Origin: Octopus vulgaris
Taxonomy: Eukaryota
NCBI GenBank assembly: GCA_951406725.2
Contig: OX597840.1
Span: 20,770,001 to 20,834,000, forward strand
Direction: 5' to 3'
DNA: 64,000 nucleotides
The notes below the pieces were generated by a model. That model was not told where the DNA came from. It did not search any database and saw nothing but the letters and a program-made list of their open reading frames with translations. The position numbers and the translations under genes were made by a program. Of this stretch, positions 18,953-46,380 are shown one piece after another. How positions within the stretch are numbered: position 1 is the stretch's first letter; the number at the start of each line of letters is the position of its first letter.

Positions 18953-19068
18953 CTATTGGTCTTCATCAAGGGTCATGTGATCCATTTGAGCCAATAGGCT
19001 GTCACTGTCCTCGGCTCCCAGTTCTTTGGGAGAAGGGGATGATGGGAAGGCTGCCAGTTGTTTTTGAT
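18953..19068 (-). CDS. BBS9: BBS9 probable last coding exon ([38 protein letters not shown])
   Basis: Long polypyrimidine tract plus ttccag acceptor; phase 1 matches exon 20; TAG at 18953-18955. The peptide is low-conservation, so support comes from splice signals and phase only. Confidence 0.7.
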
Positions 19069-19393
19069 CTGGAAAGAAGAAGAAGAATGAGTAAGAGCAC
19101 GAGTGTGAGTGGGACATTGAGCATGAGTGAGGGTGACATAAGGTGAGTGACTGTGGAGCATTGAGTATGAGTGAAAGTGGAATTGAGAGAGTGAGTTAAA
19201 AATGGGAGAGGATATATATATATATACATATCATCATCATCGTTTAACGTCCGTTCTCCATGCCAGCATGGGTTGGACGGTTCGACCGGGGATCTGGGAA
19301 GCCAGAAGGCTGCACCAGGCTCCAGTCTTATCTGGCAGTGTTTCTACAGCTGGATGCCCTTCCTAACGCCAACCACTCCGTGAGTGTAGTAAC

Positions 19394-19424
<31 letters not shown>

Positions 19425-19513
19425 TATACATATATACATACATATATACATACATATATATATACATATATATATACATATATACATATATACATACATA
19501 TATACATACATAT

Positions 19514-19571
<58 letters not shown>

Positions 19572-22500
19572 GAAGGTTTGAAAATGCAATTTTAAAAGGT
19601 GTTTATTCATTTGACCAGTTTCACTTTTTTAGAAAAAGATTGTCAAAAGTAAAATGTAAAGCTTTGTATAAGCTTTGTTGTGTTAAGTACTGGTTGTCAC
19701 TAAAAATTTTACAATACATATATACATCATCATCATCATTTAGCATCCGCTTTCCATGCTAGCATGGGTTGGACGGTTCAATTAGGGTCTGGGAAGCCAG
19801 AAGGCTGCATCAGGCCCAGTCTGATCTGGCAGTGTTTCTATGGCTGGATGCCCTTCCTAACGCCAACCACTCCGTGAGTGTAGTGGGTGCTTTTTATGTG
19901 CCACCCGAATAATAAGAAAATGTTAAAAGTAGTTTACAAGGAAAAATCTTGTGAAATTATTAAAAAGTTCATTGAAAATATTAGGATTTCATTATAATAA
20001 GCAGGGGAAGGGGAAGGCAGGCTTGAAATGAGTGAGAAAAAAATGTGAGGAGGAGAAATCATCATCATCATCGTTATTTAACATCCATGTTCTATACTGA
20101 CATGAGTTGAAGGGTTTGGCAAGGTCCAACAAGTCTGAAGATTGCATCATTCACCAGTGTCTATTGTGGTATAATTTCTATGGCTGGATGCTGCCCTTCC
20201 TAATGCCAACCACTTTACAAAATGGACTGGGTGCCTTTTTACGTGACACCAGCACCAGTGGGGTCACCATGCAGTTTGCAAGAAAAAGAGAGAAATGAAG
20301 AGAAGTGGAGAGAATGAGATATAGAAAGGGAGACAGATAGGGTGTTAGGTGGGGGTGAGAGAAAGGGAGAGAGAGGAGAGATAGGGGAGGTGGAGAGAGA
20401 GAGAGAGAAAGAGGGAAAGAATGAGAGAGGAGGAGGGAGAGAAAACAGAGCAGGACAAAGATGGAGAGTGTGAAAGAAAGAGAATAAGAACTAACCAGAA
20501 GCGGCTGGAACCAGCTTTACTCCTTTCCCCAGTTTATCACAGAATGTAGTGATGTGTTTACAGACTTTCGAGGAATCAGTCGGGAGGCTGAACGGTGGAG
20601 GGTTGATCGTTGTGTCTTTGGTATTCTTTGCCAGCACAGTCCGCAGCATGTGGGTGATGGCAGCGTCGACGTTCTCCTCCCAACCCTGTGAAAATGACAA
20701 ACAGACATTAAGACGAACGGACATGAAGATGAACAGACATGAAGACAAACAGACATCAAGATGAACAGATGTGAAGACAAATGGATTTGAAGGCATACAG
20801 ATGTGAAGACAAACAGATGTGAAGACATACAGATGTGAAGACAAACAGATGTGAAGACAAACAGATGTGAAGACAAACAGATGTGAAGACAAACAGATGT
20901 GAAGACAAACAGATGTGAAGACATACAGATGTGAAGACAAACAGATGTGAAGACAAACAGATGTGAAGACAAACAGATGTGAAGACAAACAGATGTGAAG
21001 ACAAACAGATGTGAAGACATACAGATGTGAAGACATACAGATGTGAAGACAAACAGATGTGAAGACAAACAGATGTGAAGACAAACAGATGTGAAGACAA
21101 ACAGATGTGAAGACAAACAGATGTGAAGACATACAGATGTGAAGACAAACAGATGTGAAGACAAACAGATGTGAAGACAAACAGATGTGAAGACAAACAG
21201 ATGTGAAGACAAACAGATGTGAAGACATACAGATGTGAAGACAAACAGATGTGAAGACATACAGATGTGAAGACAAACAGATGTGAAGACAAACAGATGT
21301 GAAGACAAACAGATGTGAAGACAAACAGATGTGAAGACAAATGGATATGAAGACATACAGACATGCCAAAACACACTCAGGAGCAAGGTGTAGGCTCCTG
21401 CCTGGCCAGCTCCTGTCAAACCATCCAACCCATGCCAGCATGGAAGGAGAACATTAAACAATGAATCATCATCATCATCATGATTTGACATCCGCTTTCC
21501 ATGCTGGCATGGGTTGGATGGTTTGACTGAGAACTGATAAGTTGAGGAGCTGCACCAGGCTCCAATCTGATATGGCAAGGTTTCTACAGCTGGATGCCCT
21601 TCCTAACACCAACCACTCCAAGAGTGTAGTGGGTGTTTTTTACGTGCCACCAGCATGGGTTCCAGTTATGAAACACCGGCATCGGCCACAACTATGATTG
21701 ATGCCTGTGGTTTGTAGTCGAGGCCAATGTCGGTGTTAAAATTTCAAAGCTACAAGATGATGCATGATTCACTGAAAATGATGTGAATAAATAAACGATG
21801 CATTTGACAGAGAAATCTGAAAGCTGAAAGATTAAAGCAACAGCTTGGAAACACACCAGCAGCGAAGTGAATGGGGAAAGTTTGGTGTGCAATATATATA
21901 TATATATACAGACGTACAAGTTTATCTTGGGCTGGGCTCACTAGTCGCAGGTGGAGCCACAGGTGTGAAGTGTAAGTTTGTCTGACTGCACAATAGTCTT
22001 AATGACCAGTGACGGCCTTAGTCCACAGGTGGACAACCATCATAAATATCATCATCATTGTCATCAGTTAATGTCTGTTTTCCATGCTGGCATGGGTTGG
22101 ATGGTTTGATAGCAGCTGGCTAGGCAGAAGGCTGCACCATGCTTCGCTATCTGTTGTGGCATGGTTTCTACAGCTCTTTGCCCTTCCTGATGCTAACCAC
22201 TTCAGTGAATGTGCCAGGTGCTTTTCCACAGCACCAGTACAGTTGCCTTTTACATGCCACTGGCACCCACAAGCCCACAAGATTAGGAAACGAGAGATGA
22301 AGAGCTTAGAATGCAGTAGAGGTGGAATGAGCTGAAAAACATAGTAGGGGAGGACGTACCTGATGGCTGTTGTTATTGATGATGGGAGACAGGACTGTGT
22401 TAAGGACAGCAAACTCCTGGTCAGTCATGTGGCCCGGGTACCAAAGACGTATGAGGAGATTTAAGAGAGACGTACCACAGCTGAGATGGTCAGAGGCCAG

Positions 22501-23829
22501 TTCCAGCTCCCTCTGGTTCCCTTCGATCATTTCAGACAGAAGAAGGATCTGCAATGAGATAACGCAACATACATTTGATGGTAACTACGTGTTATTCATT
22601 AAGTATGGTGGTGACAGTGAGAGAGGATGGTGGTGATGGTGGTTGTTGGGGGAGATGGTAGTGGTGGGGGAAGGTGGTGGTGTTGTTCATGGTGGTGCCT
22701 GTGATGGGGGTGGCTGTGGTGGTGGTGTTGGTGGTGATGGTGTTAATGATGATGGTGGTGGTGGTGGTAGTGGTGATGGTGCTAATGATGATGGTGGTGG
22801 TGGTGGTGGTGGCATTGGTGCTTTTTTTGGTGAGGTAGTGCTGGTAGTGGCACCGGTGCTGGTAGTGGTGTTAATGACGATGGTGGTGGTGGTGGTGGTA
22901 GTGGTGATGGTGGTGGTGGTGGTGGTGGTAGTGGTGATGGTGGCTGTGTGGTAGTGGTGATGGTGCTAATGATGGTGATGGCATTGGTGCTTTTTTGGTG
23001 GGGTAGTGCTGGTAGTGGTGTTAATGGTGGCACTAGTGTTAGTGATTGCGGTGGTGGTGTTTTTTGGGGGGGGGGGGGGCGGGGGGGCACTGGTGGTTGT
23101 GCACCCCAAAATCGCATGGTTCCAAACCAACCTTCTTAACCACACAGCCATGCCTACACCACAGCAAATAGATGGAACAGTCATGGCCGGAATGCCACTG
23201 ACAAATCAGGCTTGGTGTGGTAAAGTAAACATCAACAACAACAACAGCAACATGAACGTTTGCTCACCTGATGGTAGGTTTCTTCCAGAAGGATGTCCAA
23301 CCCAACAAGATGCAAAGGGGACTTGTCCTTGTATTTGATTAAGAGACGCCTCTGAATGGCACGGAACTGTGCCGCCTTCGTTGCCAGCTCCTCTTTGCAC
23401 CGTTCCACTTCTTGACGATGCTGCAACATGTTGGAATGGTATAAGAGATTGAAACGGTAAAGGGGAAAAAGAAAAACAACAGAAAAAAAACAAACAAGGA
23501 ACAGAAGAGCAAAATTCTTCCCCCAAAATAACAATTATTGCTTATCCATCATCCTCTTCATCATCATCATCCTCCTCTTCATCATCATCATCATCCTCTT
23601 CATCATCATCATCATCCTCTTCATCATCATCATCCTCTTCATCATCATCATCATCCTCTTCATCATCATCATCATCATCTTCATCATCATCATCCTCCTC
23701 TTCATCACCATCATCATCATTCTCATCATCATCATCATCCTCTTCATCATCATAATCACCATCATCATCATTCTCTTCATCATCATCATCATCGTCTTCA
23801 TCATCATCATCATAATCACCATCATCATC

Positions 23830-23865
<36 letters not shown>

Positions 23866-25191
23866 TTCATCATCATCATCATCCTCTTCATCATCATCAT
23901 CATCCTCTTCATCATCATCATCATCATCCTCTTCATCATCATCCTCTTCACCTTCATCATCACCATCATCATCCTCGTCTTCCTCATCACCATCATCCTC
24001 ATCGTCATCACCACCACCCTCCTCCTCATCATCATCATCATCATCATCCTCTTCATCATCATCCTCTTCACCTTCATCATCACCATCATCATCCTCGTCT
24101 TCCTCATCACCATCATCCTCATCGTCATCACCACCACCCTCCTCCTCATCATCATCATCATCATCATCCTCTTCATCATCATCCTCTTCATCATCATCAT
24201 CACCATCATCATCCTCGTCTTCCTCATCACCATCATCCTCATCGTCATCACCACCACCCTCCTCCTCCTCCTCATCATCATCATCATAATCATCATCCCC
24301 ATCATCATTATCTTCATCACCATCATCATCATCATCATCATCATCTAACATCCGTTGTCCATGCTGGCATGGGTTGGAGAGTTTGACCAGAGCTGGCAAG
24401 GCTGGTGAGCTGCACCATACTTCTGAGTGTGTTTCGGCCCTTCCTAACACCGACTACCCCACAGAGTGTGCTGGGTGCTTTTACGTGGCACCGGCTTTAA
24501 ATAATAACAATAATAATCTTTTCTACTATAGACATGAGGGCTGAAATTTTGGGGGAGGGGACTAGTTGATTACATCAACCCCAATGCGTAACTGGTACTT
24601 ATTTCATCAATCCCAAGAAGATAAAAGGCAAGGTCGACCTTGGTGGAATTTGAATTCAGAATGTAAGGATGGACGAAATGCCACTAAGCATTTTGCCCAG
24701 TGCGGTAATGATTCTGCCAGCTCACCATCTTGATGATGATGATGATGTAATATAAATGAAATGTCAAATGTTTTGATGCATGACTTTTGGGCCATACTGC
24801 ATAATATACACACACACACATAATGGGCTTCCTCACAGTTTTCGTTTAGCAGTTTCATTCATAAGGCATTAGTCAACCCGGGACCATGGTATAAAACATT
24901 TACTCAACATGCTGTGCAGCGGAACTGAACCTGAAACCTCGTGGTTGCAGAGTGAGCTTCTTAAACCACACAACCATATATACTCTTTACTTTTTTACTT
25001 GTTTCAGTCATTTGACTGCGGCCATGCTGGAGCACCACCTTTAGTCAAGCAAATCGACCCCGGGACTTATTCTCTGTAAGCCCAGTACTTGTTCTATCGG
25101 TCTCTTTTGCCGAACCACTAAGTGACGGGGACGTAAACACACCAGCATCGGTTGTCAAGCAATGCTAGGGGGGACAAACACAGACATACAA

Positions 25192-25228
<37 letters not shown>

Positions 25229-26397
25229 CGACAGGCTTCTTTCAGTTTCCGTCTACCAAATCCACTCACAAGGCATTGGTCGGCCCGAGGCTATAGCAGA
25301 AGACACTTGCCCAAGATGCCACGCAGTGGGACTGAACCCGGAACCATGTGGTTGGTAAGCAAGCTACTTACCACACAGCCACTCCTGCGCCTATGGATAT
25401 GTAAAAAAAAAAACGATGATCCAAACCTCTAAATGTATGTTGATCAGTTCAAAATACTCCGGGAGAGGAAGATGGCTGCTAAATCCCAGCTTGAAATCAC
25501 TGTTTCTGTCGTGCTCAAAGTTCTTCTTCAGCCTCCGCACTAATTCCTCGCACAAAATGTACATCGCTTCAAATTTATCACACTGGATCCGGTAACGATC
25601 TGCAACCAGATAAAAAAAAAACACAAACACATAGTTTTTACATAATTACACAACAGATCGTTATTATTATATTTAATAACTAGCAATATCACCCGGCGTT
25701 GCTCGGGTTTGTTTCGACCCTTTAGAATTGGAATTTTTGAAAAGTAAAAACTTTGCATTATGTAGCTTGTTAATCTCTTCAAGTGAACATTTTTCTGGTT
25801 GAAATACACCGAAAAATGGTGACACAGCAGTCAAATAATCATAAAAAATAGGGATTTTCATAGAAAAAAAGCACCTTTTTGATGTAAATAATCTTTGGTG
25901 TTAACATGGTCCGATTTGAATTTTTTCTTCTACGGAAGGAAGAGCAAGCCTTCTTCTATCATACTCTCAATTTTGGTCAACTTGCGCTGCAGGGTCTTGG
26001 AGGAGATAGTGTTAGTTGAAGGCTACCAAACCTGCCACACCCAGACAACTTCAGCTTTATATATACAGAGATATTATTTGCTGTGACCCCCTTCATGAGT
26101 GACCATGGGATTGCACCTAGAAAGTTACCCTCTGAGGCACAAGTCCGGGCAAAGTTGTTTATGGAAGACCAGCAGTCGCCCATGCATACCAGCCTCCCCT
26201 CTCTATGGCACCGATGTTATCCAAGGGAAAGGCAAAGGGGCCGATACAGCTTGGCACCAGTGACGTCGCAACTCATTTATTAAGATGCAAGTGGCTGAAC
26301 ACTTCACAGACACGTGTACCCTTAATGTAGTTCTCAGAGAGATTCAGCGTGACATAGAGTGTGACAAGGCTGGCCCTTTGAAATACAAGTACAATAG

Positions 26398-26452
<55 letters not shown>

Positions 26453-29400
26453 CATTATTGAAGCTGGTGTGCTGGCACAACTGTTAGCACACCGAGTGAA
26501 ATGCTCAGTGGTATTTCATTTGCTGCCACGTTCTGTGTTCAAATTCCACCGAGGTTGACTTTGCCTTTCATCCTGTCGGGGTCAATAAATTAAGTATCAG
26601 TGAAACACTAGGGGTCGATGTAATCGACTTAATCCCCTCCCATCTAATTTCAGGCCTTGTGCAGAAAGGGTCTGTATTATTATGAGGAAAAGTTTTCTTT
26701 TGTTAGAAGGAGATGTTAATGAAATGATACAAAAATAATCAAAAAAACTGTAGAAAAAAGTAGAATTATAAAATGAGAGGGAGGAGAGAGAGAAAGGAGA
26801 AATGTGAGAGGTGAAAGAAAGAAAGGATGAGAGAAAGAAAGGAAGAGAGAAAGAAAGGAAGAGTGAAAGAAAGAAAGGAAGATAGAAAGAAAGAAAGGAA
26901 GAGAGAAAGAAAGAAAGAAAGGAAGAGAGAAAAAAAGAAAGGGAGAAAGAAAGAAAGAAAGAAAGAAACCAACACACAAACAAACAAAGGAAAAAGGAAT
27001 GAAGGAATAGAGAAGAAAGAAAGAGAGGAAGAGAGAAGGAAAGAAAGCATGAAAAATGAGTGGTGAATTCTTTGGATAGATTGTGGCATCACACATACCT
27101 GACTTTGAAGCAAGAATTGTAACGATCGTCCCGTTGAGGTATTCACAGCCCACCACTGAGTTGGAACCTGAGCCACTAGGATCTGTTAAGTCTAACACAC
27201 AGACAGAAACAAGATATCAATTAAACTGATTAAATGAATGTTCATTAAAAGGAAGCATTTAATAAAGAAAGCAGCTTATTAATTAGTTGTGATTACGTAA
27301 CTTTTACTAAAAGAAATCAATTATCAAAGTCTTTACTGTCTACAAAAATCTTATAATTTCCAAATTTTATATATATGACGGGCCTCCGTGCCGGTGGAAC
27401 ATAAAAGGCACCATCCAACCATGGCCGTTTGCCAGCCTAGTCTGGCACCTGTGCCGGTGGCACGTAAAAACCACCCACTACACTCATGGAGTGGTTGGCA
27501 TTAGGAAAGGCATCCAGCCATAGAAACATTGCCAGATCAGACTGGGCCTGGTGCAGCCTTCTGGCTTCCCAGACCCCAGTTGAACCGGCCAACCCATGCT
27601 AGCATGGAAAGCAGACGTTAAACGATGATGATGATATATATATATATATATTTATATAGTCAATCCAAACATGAACAAGCAAGAAAAAACAACAACACGT
27701 GGATGTGGAATAAGTACAGTGTTATTGGACGCTGAGGAAAGGACAAAATGTGGTTTTCAAACTTCTTTTATTATTGACTAACTTAAAAGTCACATTCCGT
27801 GCAGACCTTTAAAATAGCTCCTGCAGAGGGTTAATTGGATTTGTGGCCCAAAACAAAACAGGGCTAAAAAGCATGACTATAATACATCTATAATGACTTA
27901 TATGCCTCAGGGGATGTTTGATCAGAGGTTAAGGACGGATGGGAATTAATTCTGTAATGCAATCATTCTATTGTTCCAGTTGCAAGTTCAATCCCAACTG
28001 TTGGCCAATTTGTCCCAAATTTCTTATCACAATGTGTATAATGCGATGGATGTATATTAATCTATGTGTACATGTGATGTGTATATATTAATCTGTGTAT
28101 AAATTAATCTATGCACTGTGCTGTATATAGTAGCCCACCTTTGCCTGTTCCATCCATCACATGTGATATAAAGGACATATTTCCCTGCTGTCCATGCTTT
28201 ATATATGATATACGTTCCCATTTCTTTTCCAGCCACAATGAAAGCTTTATATTAGTCAGACTGTGTGAAACAAGGTCCGACTGAAAGTTAGGAAACAAGC
28301 AAGGATGCTTAGGACAACCTTATGAAAATACTTTGGGTAGGCAAAGGGTTCGAGAATAAATCTGTAGACCTAAACCTTTGAAGGTGGTGCCCCAGCATGG
28401 TCGCAGTCAAACGACTGAAACAAGAGAAAGAAAGAAGGCGTAATCCAAGGAGAATGATGAGGAGAAGAAAGAAAGGAAGGAAAAAAAAGGTGAAGAACCT
28501 GGGAAAATCTTGTTTAAATTCAAAGATGCTTTGTTTGAGTCAATGGTGATCTTGTAGTTGGCATTCTTCATTGGAACTGCTGGCTTCACGACTAAACGGA
28601 GTGGTAGTCTCAGATCAGTCACCACTCGTCGGCTGCTTCCTGGAATTACAGACAATGTGGCATTAACAACAACAACAGCAACAACAACATTCTATCATCT
28701 GTTCTAACTTTTTATGGGACCCCTGATAACCCTTTCGTTGCCATATTTCTCTTGAAATACACATTCTTTGGTTCAATTAATTTTGGGAAATATTGAAGAA
28801 TTTAGAGAAACAACTTTGTCATTATTAACCCTGTTCGTTACCATATTTCTGGTAACGATTACGGTGATTTCAGACACAGCATTGTATAAAATGGACATTG
28901 TTTGCTTACCTGAAGATGGTCGCAGGTAACTGGTGCAAACTTGGACAGCTAGGCTGGTCGGCAGGTCTAATGAGGAAGGGTACACACACATAATGGTTTC
29001 ATGGGGTCGATTCGGCTCTGAGGAGCAGAAGAAGAGATAAATACCAATTAGAGCAATGTAACAATAACAACAATAATAATAATAATAATTAAAAGAAAAA
29101 ACATTTGAGCGAGGTCGTTGCCAGTGCTACTGGACTGGCTGCTGTGCAGGTGGCACATAAAAAACACCATTTGAGCGTGGCCACTGCCAGCACCGCCTGA
29201 CTGGGCCTCGTGCTGGTGGCACATAAAAGCACCCACTACACTCTCGGAGTGGTTGGCATTAGGAAGGGCATCCATCTGTAGAAACTCTGCCAGATCAAGA
29301 TTGGAGCCTGGTGCAGCGATCTGGTTTGCCAGTCCTCAGTCGAACCGTCCAACCCATGCTAGCAAGGGAAGTGGACGTTAAACGATGATGATGATGATGA

Positions 29401-32400
29401 TGAATAATCCTTTCTACTGGAAACACAAGGTCTCAAATTTTGGGGAAGGGATTAAATCGATTACATCGACTCCAGTGCATAACTGGTATTTATTTAATCA
29501 CCCCCGAATGGATGAAAGGAAAAGTTGACCTTGGTGGAATTAGAACTCAGCAGACAAAATATTGCTAAGCATTTCATTCAGAGTGCTAATGATTCTGCCA
29601 GCTCACCACCTTCAATAATAATAATAATAATAATAAAAATAAATAATAATAATAATAATAATAGTCGTCATCATCATCATCGTTTAACGTCCGTTTTCCA
29701 TGCTAGCATGGGTTGGACGGTTAGCATGGGTAATAATAATTTATACAAAACTCACTGACCATGTGGTGAACTGAACTGACAGCATGGGGAGATAAGCTGG
29801 GAGAGGTAAATATCAAAAGAGGAATCTTTCAAGGGGACGGTCTGTCACCTCTCCTATTTGTTGTCTGAATACTACCGTTAATGAGTGTTTTAAGAAAGAT
29901 GCATGTGGGGTACATGCTAGGCAGGGTGAAAGTAAACAGCCCCCAGTACCTGACTGATACTTTATTTCAGTGACCCCAGAAGGAACAGAGGCGAAATCAA
30001 CTTCAGCAGAATTTGAACTCAGAGCCAGAAGGAAAGCTGCTAACGTTTTTGTCCAGTATAAATACAAACGATTCTGCCTTCTTGACGACCACGACGACGG
30101 CGACGAGGAGAGGAGGAGGGGATTTGAAACAAGTTAATCTCATTACTTCACAGTAAATCCCCCACCCCGTTGGGAGGAAGCGGGAGAGTGAAAGGCAAAT
30201 TTGAATTTGGGACGTAAAGAACCAGAGCAAATGTTTGCGAATGTGATGGGTAGGGTGGGGAGTGTCAGTCGATACCATCGACCCCCAGTATTCGACTGGT
30301 ATTTCATTTTAATTGCCACCTGAGAGATAAAATGCGAAGTTGTCGAAGGCGGAGTTTGAACACGGAACGTAAAGAGCCAGAGCAAATTCCGCAAATCATC
30401 TAAAAAAATAAAATGGACACTGAATAATTAAAGCAGGTCAGTGGGGGAGTTCCCTTTTTTCTTTTTTTTTTTTTTCTTGGTTAATTAAAATCGAACATTT
30501 CGTAGCGAGGAAAGGAAAATAACAGTCAAAGTGGTAATCGGGAAATTATTTCGAAACCAAAAATCCAAGGGAGATAACTTTTAACTACAAGAGTTGTTTC
30601 CCTTGGACCTGCTTTCGCATTGCTATAAATATGATTTGGTGTCTCAAAAGTCACAGGTAGGTTTCAATTTTTAATAACTTCCTTAACTTTACAAGAAGAT
30701 GGATGAAATTTTGATACAGTATAAAGGACATAATGGAAATTAATATGCGCGGGTCAAATTTTGTAACACCCCTACATCACATACGAAGAATGACATCGTT
30801 TAAATGGCGGCCATTTTCGGCATCGCACGCCCGTGTTCTTTCCAAAACCTGCACTGTAACACCCTCAAGAATTTCAGACCCCACTTCTCTGATTTATCTA
30901 TTGGTGTTGTCCTTCAGTTGCACCAGGGTTTCCGGTTTGTTGACGTAACTCCACTCTTTCAGGTATCCCCCACAAGGAAAAATCCGGGCTTTTTCATGGT
31001 GACATGCGTCAGGCAGAGTTTATTGAAGCAGATTTTCCATGGTCCTATGTCCTTCCTTTTGCTTGTATGTGTGCATGTTTTTAAAGGCAGAAACGTTAGC
31101 ACGACGGGCGAAACGCTTAGCGGTATTTTGTCTGCCGCTACGTTCTGAGTTCAAATTCTGCCGAGGTCGACTTTGCCTTTCATCCTTTCGGAGTCAATTA
31201 AATAAGTACCAGTTACGCACTGGGGTCGATGTAATCGACTTGATCCCTTTGTCTGTCCTTGTTTGTCCCCTCTGTGTATAGCCCCTTGTGGGCAGTAAAG
31301 AAATAAGTATTTCGTCTGCCCCTACGTTCTGGGTTCAAATTCCACCAAGATCGACTTTGCCTTTCATTCCTTCGGGGTCAATTAAATAAGTACCAGTTAC
31401 GCACTGGGGTCGATATAATCGACTTAATCTGTTTGTATGTCCATGTTTGTCCCCTCTGTGTATAGCCCCTTCTGGGCAGTAAAGAAGTAAGTATGTGTGT
31501 GTGTATTTGTTTGTGTGTGTGTGCGTGTTTGTGTGTGTTCGTGATTTTGTGTGTGCATGCGTGTGTATGTAAATTGTGTGATTGTTGTAAACAAGCATCA
31601 CTGTCATACAAGTGGAGTGATCTGTTTGCAATCTTCTGTGAAACTATGTCCAGCCATGAGGGAAGTATAACTTTGGTTGGCAACAGGAAGGGCACCTGGC
31701 CGTAGAGAACCTGCCTGTCACATGCTAGCACAGAAAGTGGACATCAACCAATGAAGACATCATGTGCTTGCTTCTTATTTGACCAGCACTGACCAATAGC
31801 TAGACAACAACAACCCTGAACAGATGAACAGATATACAAGGGGGTAGGGCTGAAAAGTTCCTGACTTTTGGGCAAAAGAAAATAGAGGAGGATCAGTTAA
31901 TTATGATTTTATTCAACATATACTCCTCTCAGATTCACACACTTATTGCAGTGGTCCTTCAGTTTTTCTAAGCCCTATAGAAGAACTTGGAAGGTTGGAC
32001 AACACCCTTAAAGCCACAAACTTTTCAGACCCCTTCACATATATATATATATATATCCCTATTTCTTGGAGAGGCAAGGGCACTTAAGAGAGAGGGAAAT
32101 GAATGAATGAATGAATGAATGTATATATGAGGTGGGGCTGAAAAGCTCTTGGCGTTGGGAAAAAGAAAATACGGGAGGGTCAGTTAATTATGATTTTATG
32201 GTTTTATTCCACATATTCCCCTCTCAGATTCAACCAGATATTGCAGCGATCCTTCAGTTTTTCTAAACCCTCTAAAAGAACTCGGAAGTTGGCCCTCCAA
32301 CCAGGCCTTTTGTGACACCCTTAAAGCCAGGAACATTTTTCAGCAACCCCTCATATAAGAAATTCGAAACTCACCCAGTTTGCTGAGGTGGAATTCTGGT

Positions 32401-33298
32401 TTCTCAGCAGTTATGTGGTTCCCAACACAGATCTGGCAGTTCACATTCTCCAGAACAGTTTTGCACTTGAACACAATCTGTAATGGAAGCAATTGATGAA
32501 AGCACGGTAATGATAGCTGTTGAATAAAGCACACCTAACATTGCCGCGGAAACTAGTGTGCCATGAGACAATGCTAGGTGTGCCGCAGTGTAAAAAAATG
32601 TAAAATGTGCCCTTTTGAAAGCCTAGCCAGGTTCATGGGCCCGATTTCTCGGTTTCAATGGCATATGTGTTCCCCAGCTGGACGGGACGCCAGTCCATCG
32701 CAGGTTGCCGCAGTGTAACCTGAATGTAATTTTTTTTTTTTTTCTAGTTACATTTTCAGTCTAGGTGTGCCACCAAAATTTGAAAATAATACAAGTGTGC
32801 CACAGGTGGAAAAAGGTTGCAGGGCATTGGAATAAAGCAGAGTAAGGATGGCTGTTGAATAAAGGAAAGTGTAATATGGGGAACTGTAAATATGAGGAAC
32901 AAAATGTGATTGACCTACATCTCTGGGTTGACTGTCCAGCCGGATTAAATCTGAGACGTGCCCTACCCGTCTGGCCTATCACTAGAACTTATGACTAATT
33001 CCCTTTCTAGCTCACACATCTACATACATCCATCCACTTCTGCTGGCTGAAACCATAGAGACCCATGCTGGCCCTACATTCACCTCCTTCCTCACTGACT
33101 GGCCCTTGAACTGGTAGCACATAAAAACACCCACTACACTCTCGGAGTGGTTGGTGTTAAGAAGGGCATCCAGCTATAGAAACTCTGCCAGATTAGACTG
33201 GAGCCTGGTGCAGCCATCTGGTTCCGCCAGTCCTCAGTCAAATTGTCCAACCCATGCTAGCATGGAAAGCGGATGTTAAACGATGATGATGATGATGA

Positions 33299-33343
<45 letters not shown>

Positions 33344-36300
33344 ACAGGCTTCTTTCAGTTTCCATCTGCCAAATCCCCTCACAAGACTTTGGCCAACCTG
33401 AGGCTATAGTACAAGATACTTGCCCAATGTGTCACACAGTGGGAGTGAACCCGGAAGCATGTGGTTGCGAACCAATTTACTGGTTGTACGAGTCCCAGTA
33501 CACAAGACAGTACCTACTTTACTAACATGTACCTGTTGCACCTGATGCAGGAATGGGTGTATATAAATGGTATGATAAAAGGCGGCAAGCTGGCAGAAAC
33601 GTTAGCACGGCGGGCGAAATGCGTAGCCATATTTCGTCTGCCGCTACGTTCTGAGTTCAAATTCCACCGAGGTCGACTTTGCCTTTCACCCTTTCGGGCT
33701 CGATTAAATAAGTACCAGTTACGCACTGGGGTTGATGTAATCGACTTAATCCATCTGTCCTCTCTATGTTTAGCCCCTTGTGGGTAGTAAAGAAATAGGT
33801 ATGATAAAATGATGACCCCTACATGAATGGTACTGATAAAAAGAAGCGGGGTATATCCCCTTAGACAGTATAATTACCTTTAACGAGACACAGGACACTT
33901 CATGTTCAGTCTCATAGTCAGAATAACTGCCAATCTGTAATTAAAGACAAATGATAATTAGTAAATAACATCTAATGCTTTGGTGTACAGCAGCGATCCG
34001 TAACCATATTTCGGACCAAGTTCCATTCAAGACAATTTTATATTTTATAATAGATCAATCACATCATAAACCACAGTATAATACATCATTTAGATGTTAT
34101 TACATATATTATATATATTACATTGGCAACAGACAAGTCCCTCAACCCCTTGGGGGTCTTGTGGTTGCTGTAGCCATGCAGTGTATCTAGGGAGAGAAAG
34201 CCTGGTAGAGCCTATTCCTTTCCAAGCTAAATTCATTTTTGCCAGCTGAGTGGACTGGAGCACTGTGAAGTGAAGTGTTTTGCTCAAGAACACAACAGAT
34301 GGCCCAGTCCAGGATTCGATGAAGGAACAAGAGCTCTGATGAAGGGACAATAACTCCTGAAATATGTATATACACCCATTGTTTTTCTATCTCCGGCTGT
34401 ATTGTTTGCATAGATGTATTCATATGTGAAATGTCATAACTCTCAGTGCTGGCTCTAATCTATTGAGAGATGCACTTAAAAAATGAAAACAACACATTAT
34501 TAATACAAAGTAGGATACAGTGTTAACTTATAAAGTGTTTAGAATATTATGGTTGCAAAACGAAATATGGTGTACCAACCACCAATTAATAGATATAAAT
34601 ATTATAGAAACATAGAGTGAGCCATACTTACTACTCTGGTCTGTAGTTCAGGAAGGAGATCAGCAGTGACAGTCAGTTCTTCCGATTCCTTTGGGTGTGG
34701 GATTAATATGTCTAGAGAGTAGAGGAGAAAGAGAAAGAGAAAGTGTACTTTCATATCATCATCATCATAATTTAGCATCCGTTGTCCATGCTGGCATGGG
34801 TTGGACGGTTTGACCAGGGCTGGCAAGCTGGGGAGCTGCACTAGGCTCCAATCTGATTTGTATATAATTTGTTCATGTGCACACATGGTTTTCAGTTGGT
34901 GGTTTATTTTAGAGGTAGTAGATAATTTCTACTACCTAGGGGACCAAATTAGTAGTGGGGGAGGGTGCACGGAGAGTGTGACAGCCACAATAAGAACAGG
35001 AGGGAGGAAATTCAGAGAGCTGTTACCTCTGTTGGCCATGAAAGATTTCTCTCTCTGGGTGAAAGGAAGATTGTGTGACGCATGTATATGGACAGCAATT
35101 CTACATGGTAGTGAGACATGGGCCCTGAATGCAGAGGAAATGCAACGGTTAGAAAGGAAAGGGGCTAGTATGTTCCGCTGGATGTGTAATGTAAACATAC
35201 ATGTTCGATAGAGGGCTAGTGTTCTGAGAGAGAGTTAGGCATAAGAGGAAATGGTTGCTGTGTGCAAGAGAGAAAAGGTTGCACTGGTTTGGTCATGTGG
35301 GTTGGATGGTTTGACTGAGGATTGGTGTGCCAGAGGCTGCACCAGACTCCGTTCTTGATCTGGCAAAGTTTCTACAGCTGGATGCCCTTCCTAACACCAA
35401 CCACTCTAAGAGTGTAGTGGGTACTTTTATGTGCCACCGGCACGAGGGCCAGTCAGGCGGTTCTGGTAACAACCATGCTAAAAAGGCATTTTTACGTGCT
35501 ACCTGCACAGGAGCCAGTCTGGTGGCACTGGCAACAACCACACTTGAATGATGTTTCCCATGTGCCACCAGCACATGTGCCGGTAAGGCGACGCTGGCAA
35601 CGATCACGGCTGGCACATTACATTTGACAGAGAAATCTGAATGCTAAAGGGTTAAACAAATAAGAAGGAAATGAACTGGGATAATTTAATGAGCGCACTA
35701 ATTAACAAAGTCTAAAAGAACACCATGTGCAATGTTTGGCCACAATTACGGCAATTTGGGGATATGGACACTGGCCACTTCCCCCACCAGAGACATTGTC
35801 TGTAATTTCAGGAAGCAGTCGACGAGTGGTGACTGATCAGAGACTACCACTCCGTTTAGTCGTGAAGCCAGCAGTTCCAATGAAGAATGCAAACTACAAG
35901 ATCACCGTTGACTCAAACAAATTAGAATTAAATGAAATAAAAGAATGACAAATAAAGGAATCTCTTACCAGCCTTGTGAGATAACTGACGGATCTTCTTG
36001 TTCAAGGAGCTGATTTCTTTGTCGATGTCGTCATAGCGGACGTCACGAGAATCGACCATCGGAGGGGTGAACAGGTCTGGGTCACTACCCAGGTAGGAGA
36101 CTTGCAGGTAACCATTCTCTGTTAGGCTAACAACTAAACCCTTGATGCCCCTACGGCAGCAACAGAGAACAAGGGAGAGAGATTGAAAAGATTTGTCAGG
36201 GAGAGACATGAGGCAACAAAGTGGTTAAATACAGAAAACCCAAAACAAATCTCAACAGATCCTACAAACTAAAATGCAAGTGCTACCAGTGAAAAACTCT

Positions 36301-38984
36301 GCATACCAGAAGCCAGCAAGTGTATGGGGTCATCAGGAGAGAATGCATGCCGTTTCGAGGCCTACCAGTCAGACACACAAACATACACACACACACACAC
36401 ATATATATATACATATATATACGACAGGCTTCTTTCAGTTTCCATCTACCAAATCCACTCACAAGGCTTTGGTTGGGACGAGGCTATAGCAAAAGTCACT
36501 TGCCCAAGGTGCCAAGCAGTGGGACTGAACCTGGAACCATATGGTTGGGAAGTAAGCTTCTTACCACACAGCCACTCCCGCACATATACATGGGCTTCTT
36601 TCAGTTTCCATCTAAGACATGCATACAAAGCTTCGGTCCTGAAACCATGTGGTTGGAAAGCAAACATTTTAACCATCCAGTCACACCTGTGTCTGTAGCC
36701 ATACCTGGTCCTATAAAGATGCTTGCACCTGTTATCCACACCTGAACCATGAAGCCCCCCCCCCGTCTCTGCCTATATATAAATAAGAGTAACTTACTGG
36801 AAGGTGCCAGTACAGATATGAACTGGGGTGTGGTCCATTTTGGCTGCCCACAGGAGCTCCACATCTTGATAGACCAATAGAGATGCTGCATGAGTGGCCA
36901 CAAGAAACTTCACTGAGTCTGAAGGGATAAAACAATGCAGGGACAGTTTCACTGATATGGTCAGGTAGAGAGGTTACAGAAAAAAAAGGGGTCAAGAATT
37001 TAAGGAAATCTTTGGTAAACACAAGAAGAAGGATCTTCCTGAAAAAGATCCCAGGAACTGTTTCACTGATATGGTCAGGTAGAGAGGTTACAGAAAAAAA
37101 AAAGGGTCAAAAAGTTAAGGAATTCTTTGGTAAACACAAGAAGAAGGATCTTCCTGAAAAAGATCCCAGGAACTGTTTCACTGATATGGTCAGGTAGAGA
37201 GAGGTTACAGAAAAAAAAAAGGGTCAAGAATTTAAGGAAGTCTTTGGTAAACACAAGAAGAAGGATCTTCTTGAAAAAGATCCCAGGAACTGTTTCACTG
37301 ATATGGTCAGGTAGAGAGGTTACATAAAAAAAGGGGTCAAGAATTTAAGGAAATCTTTGGTAAACACAAGAAGAAGGATCTTCCTGAAAAAGAACCCAGG
37401 AACTGTTTCACTGATATGGTCAGGTAGAGAGGTTACAGAAAAAAAAGGGGTCAAGAATTTAAGGAAGTCTTTGGTAAACACAAGAAGAAGGATCTTCCTG
37501 AAAAAGATCCCAGGAACTGTTTCACTGATATGGTCAGGTAGAGAGGTTACATAAAAAAAAGGGGTCAAGAATTTAAGGAAATCTTTGGTAAACACAAGAA
37601 GAAGGATCTTCCTGAAAAAGAACCCAGGAACTGTTTCACTGATATGGTCAGGTAGAGAGGTTACAGAAAAAAAAAAGGGTCAAGAATTTAAGGAAGTCTT
37701 TGGTAAACACAAGAAGAAGGATCTTCCTGAAAAAGATCCCAGGAACTGTTTCACTGATATGGTCAGGTAGAGAGGTTACAGAAAAATAAAGGGTCAAGAA
37801 TTTAAGGAAATCTTTGGTAAACACAAGAAGAAGGATCTTCCTGAAAAAGATCACAGGAACAGTTTCACTGATATGGTCAGGTAGAGAGCTTACAGAAAAA
37901 AAGGGTCCTACTGAAAAATGTTAAAAATGTGATGGAATTTAACACGATGGTTAAGTTGAAAGGTCAAGTCCAAAGATCAAAGGTCATGTTTTAACCTTTT
38001 TTTACCATATTTCTCTTGAGAAAGTCTGTGTTTATTTCAATTAATTTTAAATGTTACAAAGAATGTAATAAAATCACTTTGTTGTTATTAAGCTTGTGGT
38101 AGCAATGTAAATCAAGAGTAAGTTTTGGTGGAAAATTTTAATTCAGAGCTTTTGAAAACAAGACATTCGTACTACAGAGCCAGGCATGGTCAGATGGATT
38201 GGTATCGAAAGGGTTAAAAGTTGAGTTGCAAGGAAGACAGAAGAGAGGATGCTCTAAAAATAGTTGGAGGCAGGATGCTGAGGTAGAGCTAAAAAAACAG
38301 GGATCTGACTGGAGCAAATCAGGGAAGAAGGTGTAGAGGAGAGAACAGCAGGGAAAAGTTATGAATGGCCAATGTTCGATAAGGCATTTATTTGAACAAA
38401 ATGGACAAATATGGCAAAAGAAAAAAATACAGGGAATAACGTTTGAAACTTACTTGACACATAGGAACAGAAACAGCTGACATCATATTCCAGTTTCTTC
38501 ATGAAATGCAAACAACCGTTCTCTGTCAGCAAATATATGTTACGCTCACCTGGAAAGAGAAACCAACAGAAATTTGGCTCCATACATCTAGCTTAGGGTT
38601 GTAAATCCAATTTGGAGTCTAAAGATTAATTAGGGAGATATAAATCTAATCAGTTAAGCCTTTAGCATTCAGATCACTCTGTCAAATATACGATGGGGTA
38701 GGGCTGAAAAGATCCTGGGTATTGCGAAAGGTCTGGTTGGAGGCCCAGCCTTCTGAGTTCTTTTAAATGGCTTAGGAAAACTGAAGGACCACTGCGATAA
38801 GTGAGTGAACCTGAGAGGTGAATATGTTGAATAAAATCATAATTAACTGGTCCTCCTTTTATTTTATTTTACTCAAAGCCAGAAACTTTTCAGCCCCACC
38901 CCTTGTATATATAAGTAAACATTTAAGTATAGGGTATGTTCTTACTCCATTTTATATATATGCATATATGTGTGTGTGTGTGTA

Positions 38985-39041
<57 letters not shown>

Positions 39042-41866
39042 GTGTGTGTGTGTATGTGTATATATATGTGTGTATGTATATATATATATATATATATATA
39101 TAAATATATATATAAAATATATATCTATATATTTATGTATACACACACACACACGATAAGGTGCTAAAAAGTTCCTGGATTTAAGGATATCATGAAAGGC
39201 CTGATTGAAGGCCCAACATACTGTGTTCTTTTATAGCACACAAATCAAAATTATGGGACTGTGAGTGTGGACTGTATACGTGAGTGCAGGCCTCTGTGTG
39301 TAGTGTGAGCCTGTGTGAGTGTGGGCCTTCCATACAGAACTTACCAAGAACCAAAATGAAACACAATGTTTCCTGGGCACAGTATGTGATTGTTGTGATG
39401 TCCAATGCATTTTCTTCGATGCCATACACCCAGTGCGGCTGCAAAGACAGGAAGAACACATAAAGAACAGATTAAAAAAGGAAGCTTGTGAAACAGGCAG
39501 AAATAATGGCACACAACGAGGAATTCTTTATTTGGATCCACAAGTGCCAGGTGACCTTGCCAGAGCTGGCACCATGGGAAAATGTATCCAGTCCACTCTG
39601 TAAAGTGATTGGTGTTAGGAAGGGCACCCAAAGGTGGCGAGCAGGCAGAAACGTTAGCATGTCGGGCGAAATGCTTTGCAGTATTTCGTCCGTTGCTACG
39701 TTCTGAGTTCAAATTCCGCCAAGGTCGACTTTGCCTTTCATCCTTTCAGGGTCGATTAAATAAGTACCAGTTACGTACTGGGGTCGATATAATCGACTTA
39801 ATCCATTTGTCTGTCCTTGTTTGTCCCCTCTGTGTTTAGCCCTTTGTGGGCAGTAAAGAAATAGGAAGGGCACCCAGCTATAAGAAACCTGCCAAAACAG
39901 GCCTCTCCAGTGCAAGTGTCACATGAAAAGCACCTAGGACATTCTGTAGTGGTAGGCATTTGGAAGGGCATCCAGCTGTAAAAATCATGCCAAAACTGAC
40001 CTCACTTGTGCTGGTGCCACATAAAAAGCATCCAGTTCACTCTGTAAAGTGGTTGGCATTAGGAAGGGCATCCAGCTGTGAAAACCAAGCCAAAACAGAC
40101 ATTGTAGTTTGGTGCAGTCCTTTGGCTTGCTAGCTGCTATCAAACCCTCTAACTCATGCCAGCATGGAAAAACAGATGTATGATGATGTCTTGCTCGGGG
40201 ACACAATGTGCCACCGGGAATCGAACCTTTGACCATCTGCCAAACCGCTAAGTTATGGGAATGCAAACACACCAACACCAGTTGTCAAGCGGACATACAC
40301 AAATATATACATACATACATGACAGGCTTCTTTCAGTTTCCATCTACCAAATCCATACACAAGGATTTGGTTGGCTCAAATATAGTAGGAGACACTTGTC
40401 CAAGGTTCCACACAGTGGGACTGAACCCAGAACCATATGGTCGGGAATCAAGCTTCTTACCACACAACCATGCGTGCACCTTTATATCTTACCACACAGC
40501 CACACCTGCACCAGGTGAGTAATATATTGGAAAGGTATGTCCTGGGCATACCATTATGACCGTTAACTTCAGTGATAGATAGGTCTCTGCCATACAGTCA
40601 TTACAAATACTACAGTTCTCCTATCTTCACCACCATACCATTGATTGGAATTCTATATTCCATGAAAACTACAACATCTTACAACCATCTGACAAACAAT
40701 AACTCTGAGCACTTTTTCAAACTCCACCCGTCTAACACCCGTGGACATATTTACAAAGTAAGAAAACAGCACAGCTCCCATGACTTTAGGAAACGAAGCG
40801 TGGAACAAACTGCCGGCATTAGTTGTTAGTTGTCGGAGCACTGCATCCTTCAAAACTTCCAAGTTATGGTGCACCTGAGCACTGTATACAATAATTTCAT
40901 TATTATTATTATTATCGTTTGAAACAAGAACAATAACTTCAAAAGCCAACGAACCGTTACACGTTTGCCCTGTTTTATATTCTGCGATTCTTCTTTGGTT
41001 TTAGAATCTGTTGCCACTGCAAGAACTTGGTATCTGCGGAAATAGAAAAAACGTGAGCATGAAATAACTGAACGGAATTGAAGCAACGGAGCAGATCAGA
41101 GGCTGGTCTACTGAGGGACATAGATTCTGGTATGAGACGTTTTGGCACAGCTGTTTTGGTGCCGCCCATTCGGCGCTGATGATTTCATGCTGACTTGTTT
41201 GACATCAGACCTTTTAATGTTTTTCTTACTCTCTCTCTCTCTCTCTCTTTATCTATCTATCTATATATATATATATATATATCACTTTCTCTTTCTTACT
41301 CTCTCTCTCTACCTATCTATCTATCTCACTCTCTCTTTCTTACTCTCTCTCTCTCTATCTATCTCACTCTCTCTTTCTTACTCTCTCTCTCTCTCTATCT
41401 ATCTATCTCACTCTCCCTTTCTTACTCTCTCTCTATCTATCTATCTCACTCTCTCTTTCTTACTCTCTCTATCTATCTATCTCACTCTGCCTTTTTTACT
41501 CTCTCTCTATCTCTATCTATCTATCTCACTCACTCTCTATCTATCTATATATCTATCTATCTCACTCTCTCTTTCTTTCTCTCTCTCTCTCTCTCCCTGT
41601 TTATTTGTGCAAGTAGAAACAAAGTGTTTTTGTCAATCATGTTCAATTAATTCATTGCAATGTCTCTCACTCTTCCTCTCTATCTCCTTCTCTCACTCTC
41701 CCTTTCTCTCCCTCTTTCTCTCACTCAATCTGTATGTGTGCACTTCTGCGCATGCATGCATGTGTGTGTGTGTGTGTGTGTCTACAATCACATGCACACA
41801 ATGACAGTAGCTGACAAAGTAGCAACGAGTGAATGAGAAGTAGTAGTAGTGGTGGTGGTGGTAGTG

Positions 41867-41925
<59 letters not shown>

Positions 41926-41944
41926 GGTAGTAGTAGTAGTAGTG

Positions 41945-42006
<62 letters not shown>

Positions 42007-42007
42007 G

Positions 42008-42038
<31 letters not shown>

Positions 42039-43929
42039 TAGTAGTAGTAGTGGTGGTGGTGGTGGTGGTGGTGGTGGTGGTGGTGGTATGTAGGTAACTG
42101 ACTTACTTGTAGCATTCGACCAAACGACTCGAAGACACGGTGACCAGTGAGTCGGTGCTGGGGACGTACTTCATGGGGCCCGGGATGAAAGCTGCCGGAA
42201 GGAAGCGTGTGAATGCATAGCTCTCCTGTTCAAACACGGACACTGTACCATCGAGGGACTGGACGCAGATGAAGTCTTTGCCTAGAGAGACACACAGACA
42301 CAGACACGTAAGCCAGGAAGGTTATAGCACAGTCGTGAATAGAGGAAGTAATTTCAATAATCAACACAAACATCATCATTGCCATTATTATGGCAACGAC
42401 CACTTTTATCATCATCATCATCATCATCATTGTCATCATCATAGTCATTTTTATCATCATCATCATCACAAACACCCCTCTTACCATCATCATCATCATC
42501 AGCATGACAACCTCCACTTTTACAATCACTGTCATCATCAACAACATTATATTCAATAACGTTTTATTACCTTGGATCGTAGGGTGACCAGCTGTGCTTG
42601 AGTCAAGTACATCAACATCAAAATAAAAATCAAATGGAAATTGTAGTTGTGATACCTCTGCCGGTGGCACGTAAAAAGCACCATCTGAACGTGGCCAATA
42701 CCAGCGCTGCCTTGACTGGCTTCCGTGCCGGTGGCACATAAAAAGCACCCACTACACTCACGGAGTGGTTGGCGTTAAGAAGGGCATCCAGCTGTAAAAA
42801 CACTGCCAGATCAGACTGGAGCCTGATGCAGCCTCCTGACTTCCCAGACCCCGGTCGAACCGTCCAACCCATGCTAGCAAGGAAAACAGACATTAAACGA
42901 TGATGATGATGATATATATATATATATACATATATTCTGAATAGTTCTTTCTACTCAGCATTGGTCAGCCTGAGGCTATAGTAGAAGACACTTGCCCAAA
43001 GTACCACACAACAGGACTGAACTGAAAACCCAATCATTGCAAAGCTAAGTTCTTAACCACACAACCATGCCTGTACCTAGAGAAATTTGAAGACTGTCTT
43101 ACCATAGACATTTCCGAACGGACCGTAGCAGAAGTTGTAGACGGATCGCTGCAGGTTGTGTTCATACATGTGATAGAGCTGATAATGGTTGCCTTGTTCC
43201 ACATGACCGGTCACAGCTGAAATATAGAGTTTGATACAGTTCAATTGTAATTATCGTCATTTTAACACCCATTGTATGGATCAGACAGATTTTATTGAGG
43301 CAGGAGTAATGGCCCCATGGCTGAGTGATTTGGGTATTCTGCTCACGATCGCAAGGTCATGAGTACTTATTCTATCAGTTGCTTTTGCCGAACTGCTAAG
43401 TTATGGGGACATAAACATACCAACACCGGTTATCAAGCAGTGGCAGGGAGGATAAACACAGACACAAAGACATGCACACACACACACATACAATGGGCTT
43501 CTTTCAGTTTCCATCAACCAAATTCACTCACAGAGCTTTGGAGACATCACAAGATTACTGTCCAAGGTGCCACGCAGAGGGACTGAATCCAAAACCATGT
43601 GGCTGGGAAGCAAACTTCTTACCACCCAGCCATGCCAGTCTCTACAGAAAAGCAGGATGGTCAAGACCCAGGGCTAAATAACAATAAATTGCTGTCACAT
43701 TCTACAGAAAGAACCGACTGAACAACCAGAATAAATTTGCTGCTACCAACCTGTGACGCCATAAACACTTAATTTCTGTGGGTGGAGAATAGCCAGGTAT
43801 AATTTGTCGGTGCCGCTGGAAGTAGAGAAAGAGAATAAAGACAAATCAGTTTTGGTCCCCAAAAACACATCAATGGAATTGGTAAATCCTCAGAGACACA
43901 CTCACTCTTGCATTTATACACATTTGCAG

Positions 43930-43981
<52 letters not shown>

Positions 43982-46349: not shown

Positions 46350-46380
<31 letters not shown>

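Follow-up and report, generated by a model that had tools for sequence, protein, structure and literature searches.

An inverted partial copy of exon 15 in intron 10 of the BBS9 gene of Octopus vulgaris, probably a young neutral template-switch insertion

Intragenic inverted duplications that place an antisense copy of an exon in an intron of the same gene are described from human disease, in which they cause skipping of CHM exon 12 (PMC8756506) and of MANBA exons 8–11 (PMC6549551). Here we analyzed 64,000 nucleotides of Octopus vulgaris DNA (GCA_951406725.2, contig OX597840.1, positions 20,770,001 to 20,834,000; hereafter the window, in whose numbering coordinates are given unless stated otherwise), where intron 10 of the cilia gene BBS9/PTHB1 contains an inverted, partial copy of exon 15. 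We conclude that this copy is real and was correctly described by an original prediction made from the letters of the window, and that it is probably a young neutral template-switch insertion of the CHM/MANBA type, from which low-level editing and small amounts of circular or skipped RNA could result. Like the human duplications, it is an inverted exon-containing segment placed in an intron of its own gene at a distance of kilobases from the source, with a predicted pre-mRNA hairpin. The CHM and MANBA duplications are reported to be 1.75 and 13.1 kb long and of new origin; their loops are short (274 nt in CHM), and dominant skipping and disease result. The BBS9 copy, in contrast, is 129 nt long, 96% identical and partial; it lies 7.1 kb upstream, with a loop that would hold four exons, and is shared between samples, and the exon is included in one RNA run.

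Other described systems resemble the locus in part. Editing-complementary sequences for ADAR (GRIA2 type) are, like the BBS9 copy, intronic and complementary to a coding exon, with a long duplex possible. The known ones are conserved, imperfect and site-selective, whereas the BBS9 copy appears young, is nearly perfect and has no compensatory change; it could act in the same manner. An inverted Alu pair is said to cause skipping of TBXT exon 6 in apes. As in that case, and as with the matches that flank circular RNAs (circRNAs), pairing across the exon block of BBS9 could favor back-splicing or skipping; their arms are both intronic repeats, whereas in BBS9 one arm is the next exon together with its acceptor. 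Such reverse-complementary matches flank circRNA exons (Ivanov, 2015, as cited in PMC9699675). Templated insertions attributed to microhomology-mediated break-induced replication (MMB-TI, MMBIR) or fork stalling and template switching (FoSTeS) are, like the BBS9 copy, short and inverted relative to a nearby template, and have been found in the germline (PMC8421209), but the tool described in that study looks within 100 bp whereas the BBS9 template lies 7.1 kb away. We found no publication linking cephalopods, inverted duplication, an exon and ADAR in the literature within reach, which left out subscription papers and several supplements.

The copy, its source exon and its presence in other samples

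The features concerned are as follows:

18953..47080, minus strand: BBS9/PTHB1 coding region, 21 exons, 865 aa
35969..36150, minus strand: coding exon 10, from the exon map and as an exon-bounded piece of the RNA-like run X10
34711–34632, 33934–33878, 32477–32375 and 29017–28910, minus strand (span 28910..34711): exons 11–14, 348 nt, in the predicted loop
28499..28639, minus strand: coding exon 15, 141 nt, aa 515–561, donor GTTCTT, encoding the GAE/platform linker and the first third of the platform domain
28530..28658, minus strand: source arm, i.e., the intron 14 acceptor (28658–28640) and the first 110 nt of exon 15 (28639–28530)
35793..35921, plus strand: inverted copy in intron 10, 19 nt of intron 14 and 110 nt of exon 15, antisense in BBS9 pre-mRNA

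The 21 minus-strand exons are bounded by AG and GT, and their joint translation is identical to O. vulgaris PTHB1 (P0005), in which five PTHB1 Pfam domains (N, GAE, platform, hairpin and C-terminal helix) lie in one reading frame. A one-exon protein query matched Octopus bimaculoides PTHB1, whose cluster has six members including P0005. Exons 11–15 are kept in all five full-length octopus proteins of this cluster, and no differences in exon 15 were found among its octopus proteins. Single-exon protein queries matched P0001 only and turned up no recoded or skipped variant, which speaks weakly against such variants. The annotated O. vulgaris isoform P0003 (712 aa) is out of the normal frame after exon 18 and is without the C-terminal helices.

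The original prediction had described a 129-bp inverted match with five substitutions, beginning about 46 nt past the exon 10 donor and taking in 19 nt of the intron 14 acceptor and 110 of the 141 nt of exon 15. All of this was borne out. Ungapped, the two arms are reverse complements at 124 of 129 letters, and beyond both edges they are no longer alike; the exon map returned the same composition and placed the start of the copy 47 nt from the exon 10 donor, in an intron 10 of 1,257 nt. The arms are spaced 7,135 nt apart, and the longest identical run common to copy and exon 15 is 51 nt. A search of the 2.8-Gb genome that skipped very common words found the copy in two places only (E 1.5e-52). 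It had also been proposed that the copy is a genomic inverted duplication rather than a retrocopy, and the data agree: the 19 nt of intron 14 are kept and no poly(A) or A tail is found at the copy, unlike a processed retrocopy. We rejected the idea that the copy holds a cryptic sense exon, as it has no internal acceptor with at least 13 of 18 pyrimidines and no cover in X10. A 17-nt pattern scan of metagenome contigs returned 77 loci, none matching beyond 28 nt, as expected by chance.

Four of the 24 listed runs (X2, X3, X6 and X10) were compared as contigs, at likeness 88 and over 9.35 kb; X1, which may be the source of the assembly, was judged by word share only (0.97 of 73 sampled words present). 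In X2 (organism B), one 695-nt contig covers 35627–36321 with 10 differences and no gap and spans both junctions of the copy, so that a search for the copy in independent data, as called for earlier, came out positive. In X3, a second sample of organism A, a depth-14 contig covers 35862 with the same G-to-A change as in X2, and the copy is likely present there. Both organism A and organism B carry the copy. An assembly artifact, for which we found no support, is practically negligible as an explanation; it is refuted by the five differences between the arms, X2 across both junctions, X3 over 35862 and the word share of X1.

Organism C (X6) gave a different picture. One X6 contig (contig 32, 560 nt, depth 53.6) aligns over the flanking stretch 35919–36303 only, with 12 differences from the window in 385 nt (3.1%), and its other 175 letters lie off the copy; they fit 166 nt (35792 to 35627, where the X2 contig ends at a repeat) plus ~9 nt. 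The depth at 35862 is zero, while one bin in the copy region has extra depth, probably from short repeat matches. The X6 contig over exon 15 (28392–28789) is unbroken, despite the 51-nt run identical in copy and exon. From the one contig and the zero-depth site we infer that the copy is probably absent in organism C, which is ~3% diverged. Its absence would place the origin of the copy near or after the A–C split; alternatively, organism C may have lost it. X2, X3 and X6 share letters unlike the window at 36123, 36198, 36266, 32365 and 32538.

The five mismatches in the predicted duplex are A:C (codon 547), C:U (541), U:U (524), C:A (517) and C:A (intron), and a sixth change, present in X2 and X3 at a CpG, yields a G:U pair. 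All five to six changes in the copy break or weaken pairs and none of the six is compensatory; we see no sign of constraint among them. The original prediction had proposed looking across octopods for conservation or compensatory changes, and this comparison went against a function, with the copy probably absent in organism C. Read as exon, two changes are non-synonymous (I547V and L524Q) and two synonymous. The I547V and L524Q differences most likely arose in the copy, because those residues are unchanged in all five full-length Octopus proteins. Copy and exon diverge by 3.9–4.7%, which is not below the 3.1% divergence of organism C in the flank. For a copy younger than the A–C split, three changes on the copy branch would be ordinary (Poisson, P = 0.32).

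Local inverted copies and the origin of the insertion

The genome sample comprised 864 kb, of which 464 kb surround the window on contig C27 and 200 kb each come from arbitrary sites on C5 and C21. In it we looked for pairs of at least 60 nt and at least 85% identity with two copies in the sample, with tandem repeats masked and pairs within 20 kb counted as local. Among the 23 two-copy pairs found, 13 of 16 local pairs were inverted, as against 2 of 7 distant ones. The inverted local pairs fell on C27 (9) and C21 (4), with none on C5. With nested pairs merged and gaps above 500 nt, there were eight events including the BBS9 copy, two of them in the 400 arbitrary kb. Three of the seven other events were checked genome-wide, and all have two full-length copies, one with 10 short partial matches in addition. 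Other local pairs are:

G000:C27, contig coordinates: 20715927–20716240 with 20717393–20717698; 20723302–20723447 with 20724672–20724822; 20906829–20907109 with 20911289–20911572
C21: a block of further local pairs (L065–L084)

Short local inverted copies thus look like a recurrent mutation class in this genome. The rate of ~5–9 per Mb extrapolates to up to ~26,000 per genome, and by a rough estimate hundreds of exons could have such copies if 1–2% touch exons.

Inverted copies of nearby templates are described as a signature of replication template switching (PMC8421209), which is also the mechanism proposed for the CHM inverted duplication (PMC8756506). As for the other local inverted copies in this genome, we propose that a DNA end in intron 10 may have changed over to the opposite strand at a distance of 7.1 kb, used it as template for ~125 nt and returned. 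Two features adjoin the copy:

35915..35936, minus strand: 22-nt stretch over the 5′ junction of the copy, ending in its first 7 letters; candidate microhomology or scar
35676..35792: 117 nt that follow the copy, single-copy and probably belonging to the ancestral intron 10

The 22-nt stretch is an imperfect direct repeat (19/22) of 35654–35675; a match of at least 19/22 was reached by 0 of 2,000 shuffles and by 1 of 1,000 random stretches. The X6 contig reaches 3 letters into the copy at the junction, with the 22-nt repeat nearby. No such repeat lies over the junctions of the other local inverted pairs. We set aside a single insertion of 35914–35654 with a 22-nt target-site duplication: the 117 nt in its middle have no source elsewhere, and the extra length of X6 fits the ancestral intron.

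The predicted duplex and BBS9 transcripts

Two dispersed repeats lie between the arms:

35298..35557: intron 10 member of an inverted pair, also matching repeats in introns 4, 12 and 15
29095..29356: the other member of that pair, located at the 3′ end of intron 13

The duplex of copy and exon has a predicted energy of −230 kcal/mol (−175 net of the cost of opening both arms) and includes a 51-bp perfect run. In the minimum-energy fold of 35980–28440 (7,541 nt) at 20°C, which assumes that the whole stretch coexists, 124 of 129 copy letters are paired with the source arm and the exon 15 acceptor is buried. By the exon map and the fold, the complementary arms bracket the exon block 11–14. The proposed ~129-bp duplex, hiding the exon 15 acceptor with exons 11–14 in the loop, is therefore feasible in the model. 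The two dispersed repeats form the longest inverted repeat pair of BBS9 (262 nt, 82%), nested inside the pair of copy and exon, and are predicted to fold together within that duplex. This nested pair flanks exons 11–13 (240 nt, also in frame) and stops 78 nt before the exon 14 acceptor. BBS9 has 77 dust-filtered inverted pairs, 15 of them at least 100 nt long at 85% identity or above, so that long duplexes are ordinary in this gene and the exonic arm is the unusual part.

From the exon map, skipping of exon 15 would remove 141 nt, skipping of exons 11–15 would remove 489 nt, and a circle of exons 11–14 would have 348 nt with one stop-free frame. These are the lengths and phases on which the original prediction rested its statement that every outcome is in frame. 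That statement is true; as an argument for function it is weak evidence, since 19% of comparable intron triples (i, j, j+1) in BBS9 share their phase. The in-frame outcomes follow from the intron phases of the gene, phase 1 being that of 11 of its 20 introns. Without exon 15 the protein would lack aa 515–561, including the start of the platform domain (527–633), and without exons 11–15 it would lack aa 399–561, including the whole GAE match (438–513); the GAE domain of BBS9 is described as dimerizing with BBS1 (PMC7018513). With domain cores lost, the skipped products are likely to be non-functional rather than tuned. The exon 15 donor had been called weak. Its letters, GTTCTT, were right, but its score of 6/9 on a crude consensus count is not exceptional, as four other donors of the 20 score as low or lower. 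Five of the 20 donors begin with GTT (exon 3, 43750 GTTGGT; exon 6, 40954 GTTCGT; exon 15, 28498 GTTCTT; exon 17, 25426 GTTTGG; exon 20, 20495 GTTAGT), and the exon 15 donor is therefore not unusual within BBS9.

X10, the sole RNA-like run compared (depth ~9), is guessed to be RNA and has pieces that end at exon borders. Its first contig (707 nt, depth 9.5) contains exon 15 with 300 nt before it, corresponding to exons 14, 13 and 12 plus 32 nt, and 266 nt after it, corresponding to exons 16 and 17. A second contig contains exon 10 followed by 76 letters that are not on intron 10, and the X10 depth of 3.66 in bin 35786–36097 is explained by exon 10 alone. Normal splicing of exons 11–17 with exon 15 included is the form seen in this run. 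Dominant skipping was not encountered, as X10 includes exon 15 and annotated proteins keep it, X10 being shallow and of unrecorded genotype. X10 differs from the window at two positions in exon 15 (28499–28638), whose letters were not read, and at none in exon 10. In X3, 8 of 362 letters depart from the window, a high polymorphism that can mimic editing when matched DNA is lacking. The paired part of exon 15 has 37 adenosines, 25 of them at non-synonymous positions. Editing is reported to fall mostly in introns and 3′ untranslated regions and rarely to affect splice sites (PMC9699675), and the supplement of the same paper gives only 296 filtered circRNAs for O. vulgaris. In squid, 54% of neural recoding sites are reported to be edited at <1% (PMC9068888).

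BBS9 introns hold two further elements. A tandem array at 36938–37907 (~115-nt period, ~95% identity) lies in intron 8 directly upstream of exon 9. A 164-codon open frame at 45134–45625 in intron 2, with a second copy 128 kb away, presumably resembles the end of a long interspersed nuclear element (LINE) reverse transcriptase.

Competing explanations and what the copy means

A recent neutral duplication, which the original prediction had itself named as its alternative, fits best. The duplex is predicted to be thermodynamically favored and to be aided by the nested repeat pair. Splicing is co-transcriptional, and intron 10 can be spliced once exon 11 has been made, ~6 kb before exon 15 appears. 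The 1,257-nt intron 10 would usually be gone before exon 15, 7.1 kb downstream, is made, and with it the copy, so that its effect would be limited. Pairing with exon 15 would be confined to pre-mRNAs that still hold intron 10, and low-level A-to-I editing and circular or skipped traces would be likely.

Several points weigh against this conclusion. The predicted fold strongly favors the duplex, and the human CHM and MANBA inverted duplications do cause skipping. Only one RNA-like run was compared, its tissue and genotype are unrecorded and contigs lose minor isoforms; its two unread exon 15 differences could be edits. Early removal of intron 10 is expected from co-transcriptional splicing in general, and the order of splicing in BBS9 may differ. 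The absence from organism C was deduced from contig alignment and depth rather than read from the empty allele, and five changes on the copy branch would be borderline (P = 0.053), slightly many for a young copy. The copy was taken to be present in each of the three A/B DNA samples considered (S1 by word share, S2 and S3) and may be fixed.

One alternative, which we consider unlikely, is that the copy is by accident an effective editing-complementary sequence. Slow removal of intron 10 would then allow frequent duplex formation, and ADAR would substantially edit exon 15, in carriers only, recoding the platform domain (e.g., K533R, K539R, K544R and I547V). The duplex with its nested repeat pair in the minimum-energy fold, the 37 paired exon adenosines (25 non-synonymous), one of which is opposite a mismatched C at codon 547, and the presence in X10 of two differences in exon 15 as against none in exon 10 would all suit it. 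The A:C site, however, lies in CAU, a poor ADAR context, the loop is 7.1 kb long and intron 10 is short. The X10 differences may equally be polymorphism, given the 8 of 362 letters in X3 nearby and the two synonymous sites at which copy and exon differ, and no octopus protein in the PTHB1 cluster differs in exon 15. Coleoid editing is reported to be extensive and aimed at repeats as well as exons (PMC9068888), which also speaks for this possibility.

In the candidate built-in switch of the original prediction, taken as a selected one, the duplex would hide the exon 15 acceptor and tune skipping or make the 348-nt circle of exons 11–14. The arms do flank exons 11–14, the downstream arm covers the acceptor, the products are all in frame and human inverted exon duplications cause skipping. 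We nevertheless regard such a switch as very improbable, and the claim is not supported: the copy is probably absent in organism C and has no compensatory change, it belongs to a class that appears recurrent, exons 11–17 lie in one X10 contig without a break, in-frame combinations are common in BBS9, and the 11–15 skip deletes aa 399–561 with the GAE domain reported to dimerize with BBS1 (PMC7018513). An RNA-templated origin with a neutral outcome, in which reverse transcription of unspliced BBS9 pre-mRNA was primed by the DNA end at a break in intron 10, is improbable, if somewhat less so. It would account for the same antisense orientation and the retained intron 14 letters, and the 22-nt imperfect direct repeat (19/22) flanks the region. 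Against it, poly(A) is lacking, no source is found elsewhere for the 117 nt that separate the repeats, the 175 letters of X6 fit 166 plus ~9 nt of ancestral intron, and the other local inverted pairs have no such junction repeat.

As a probably neutral template-switch insertion, the BBS9 copy would be a case, tolerated in wild animals, of a lesion that in humans leads to exon skipping and disease. It offers a natural experiment, with lineages ~3% apart that have, and probably lack, a near-perfect antisense exon copy in animals with very active ADARs, and, the copy being datable, a way to ask whether a recently formed long-range duplex leads to recoding, circles or skipping. Short local inverted copies are in strong excess, which suggests that there are many such test cases in this genome. 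A more speculative proposal, doubtful on present evidence though not far-fetched, is that local inverted copies seed recoding clusters, with BBS9 exon 15 as a dated case, recoded and hyper-edited in carriers and unedited in the sister lineage. If this were true, exon capture by a local inverted copy would give ADAR a ready-made duplex of exon and intron, and coleoids would have a concrete mutational route by which to gain clusters of recoding sites in one step.

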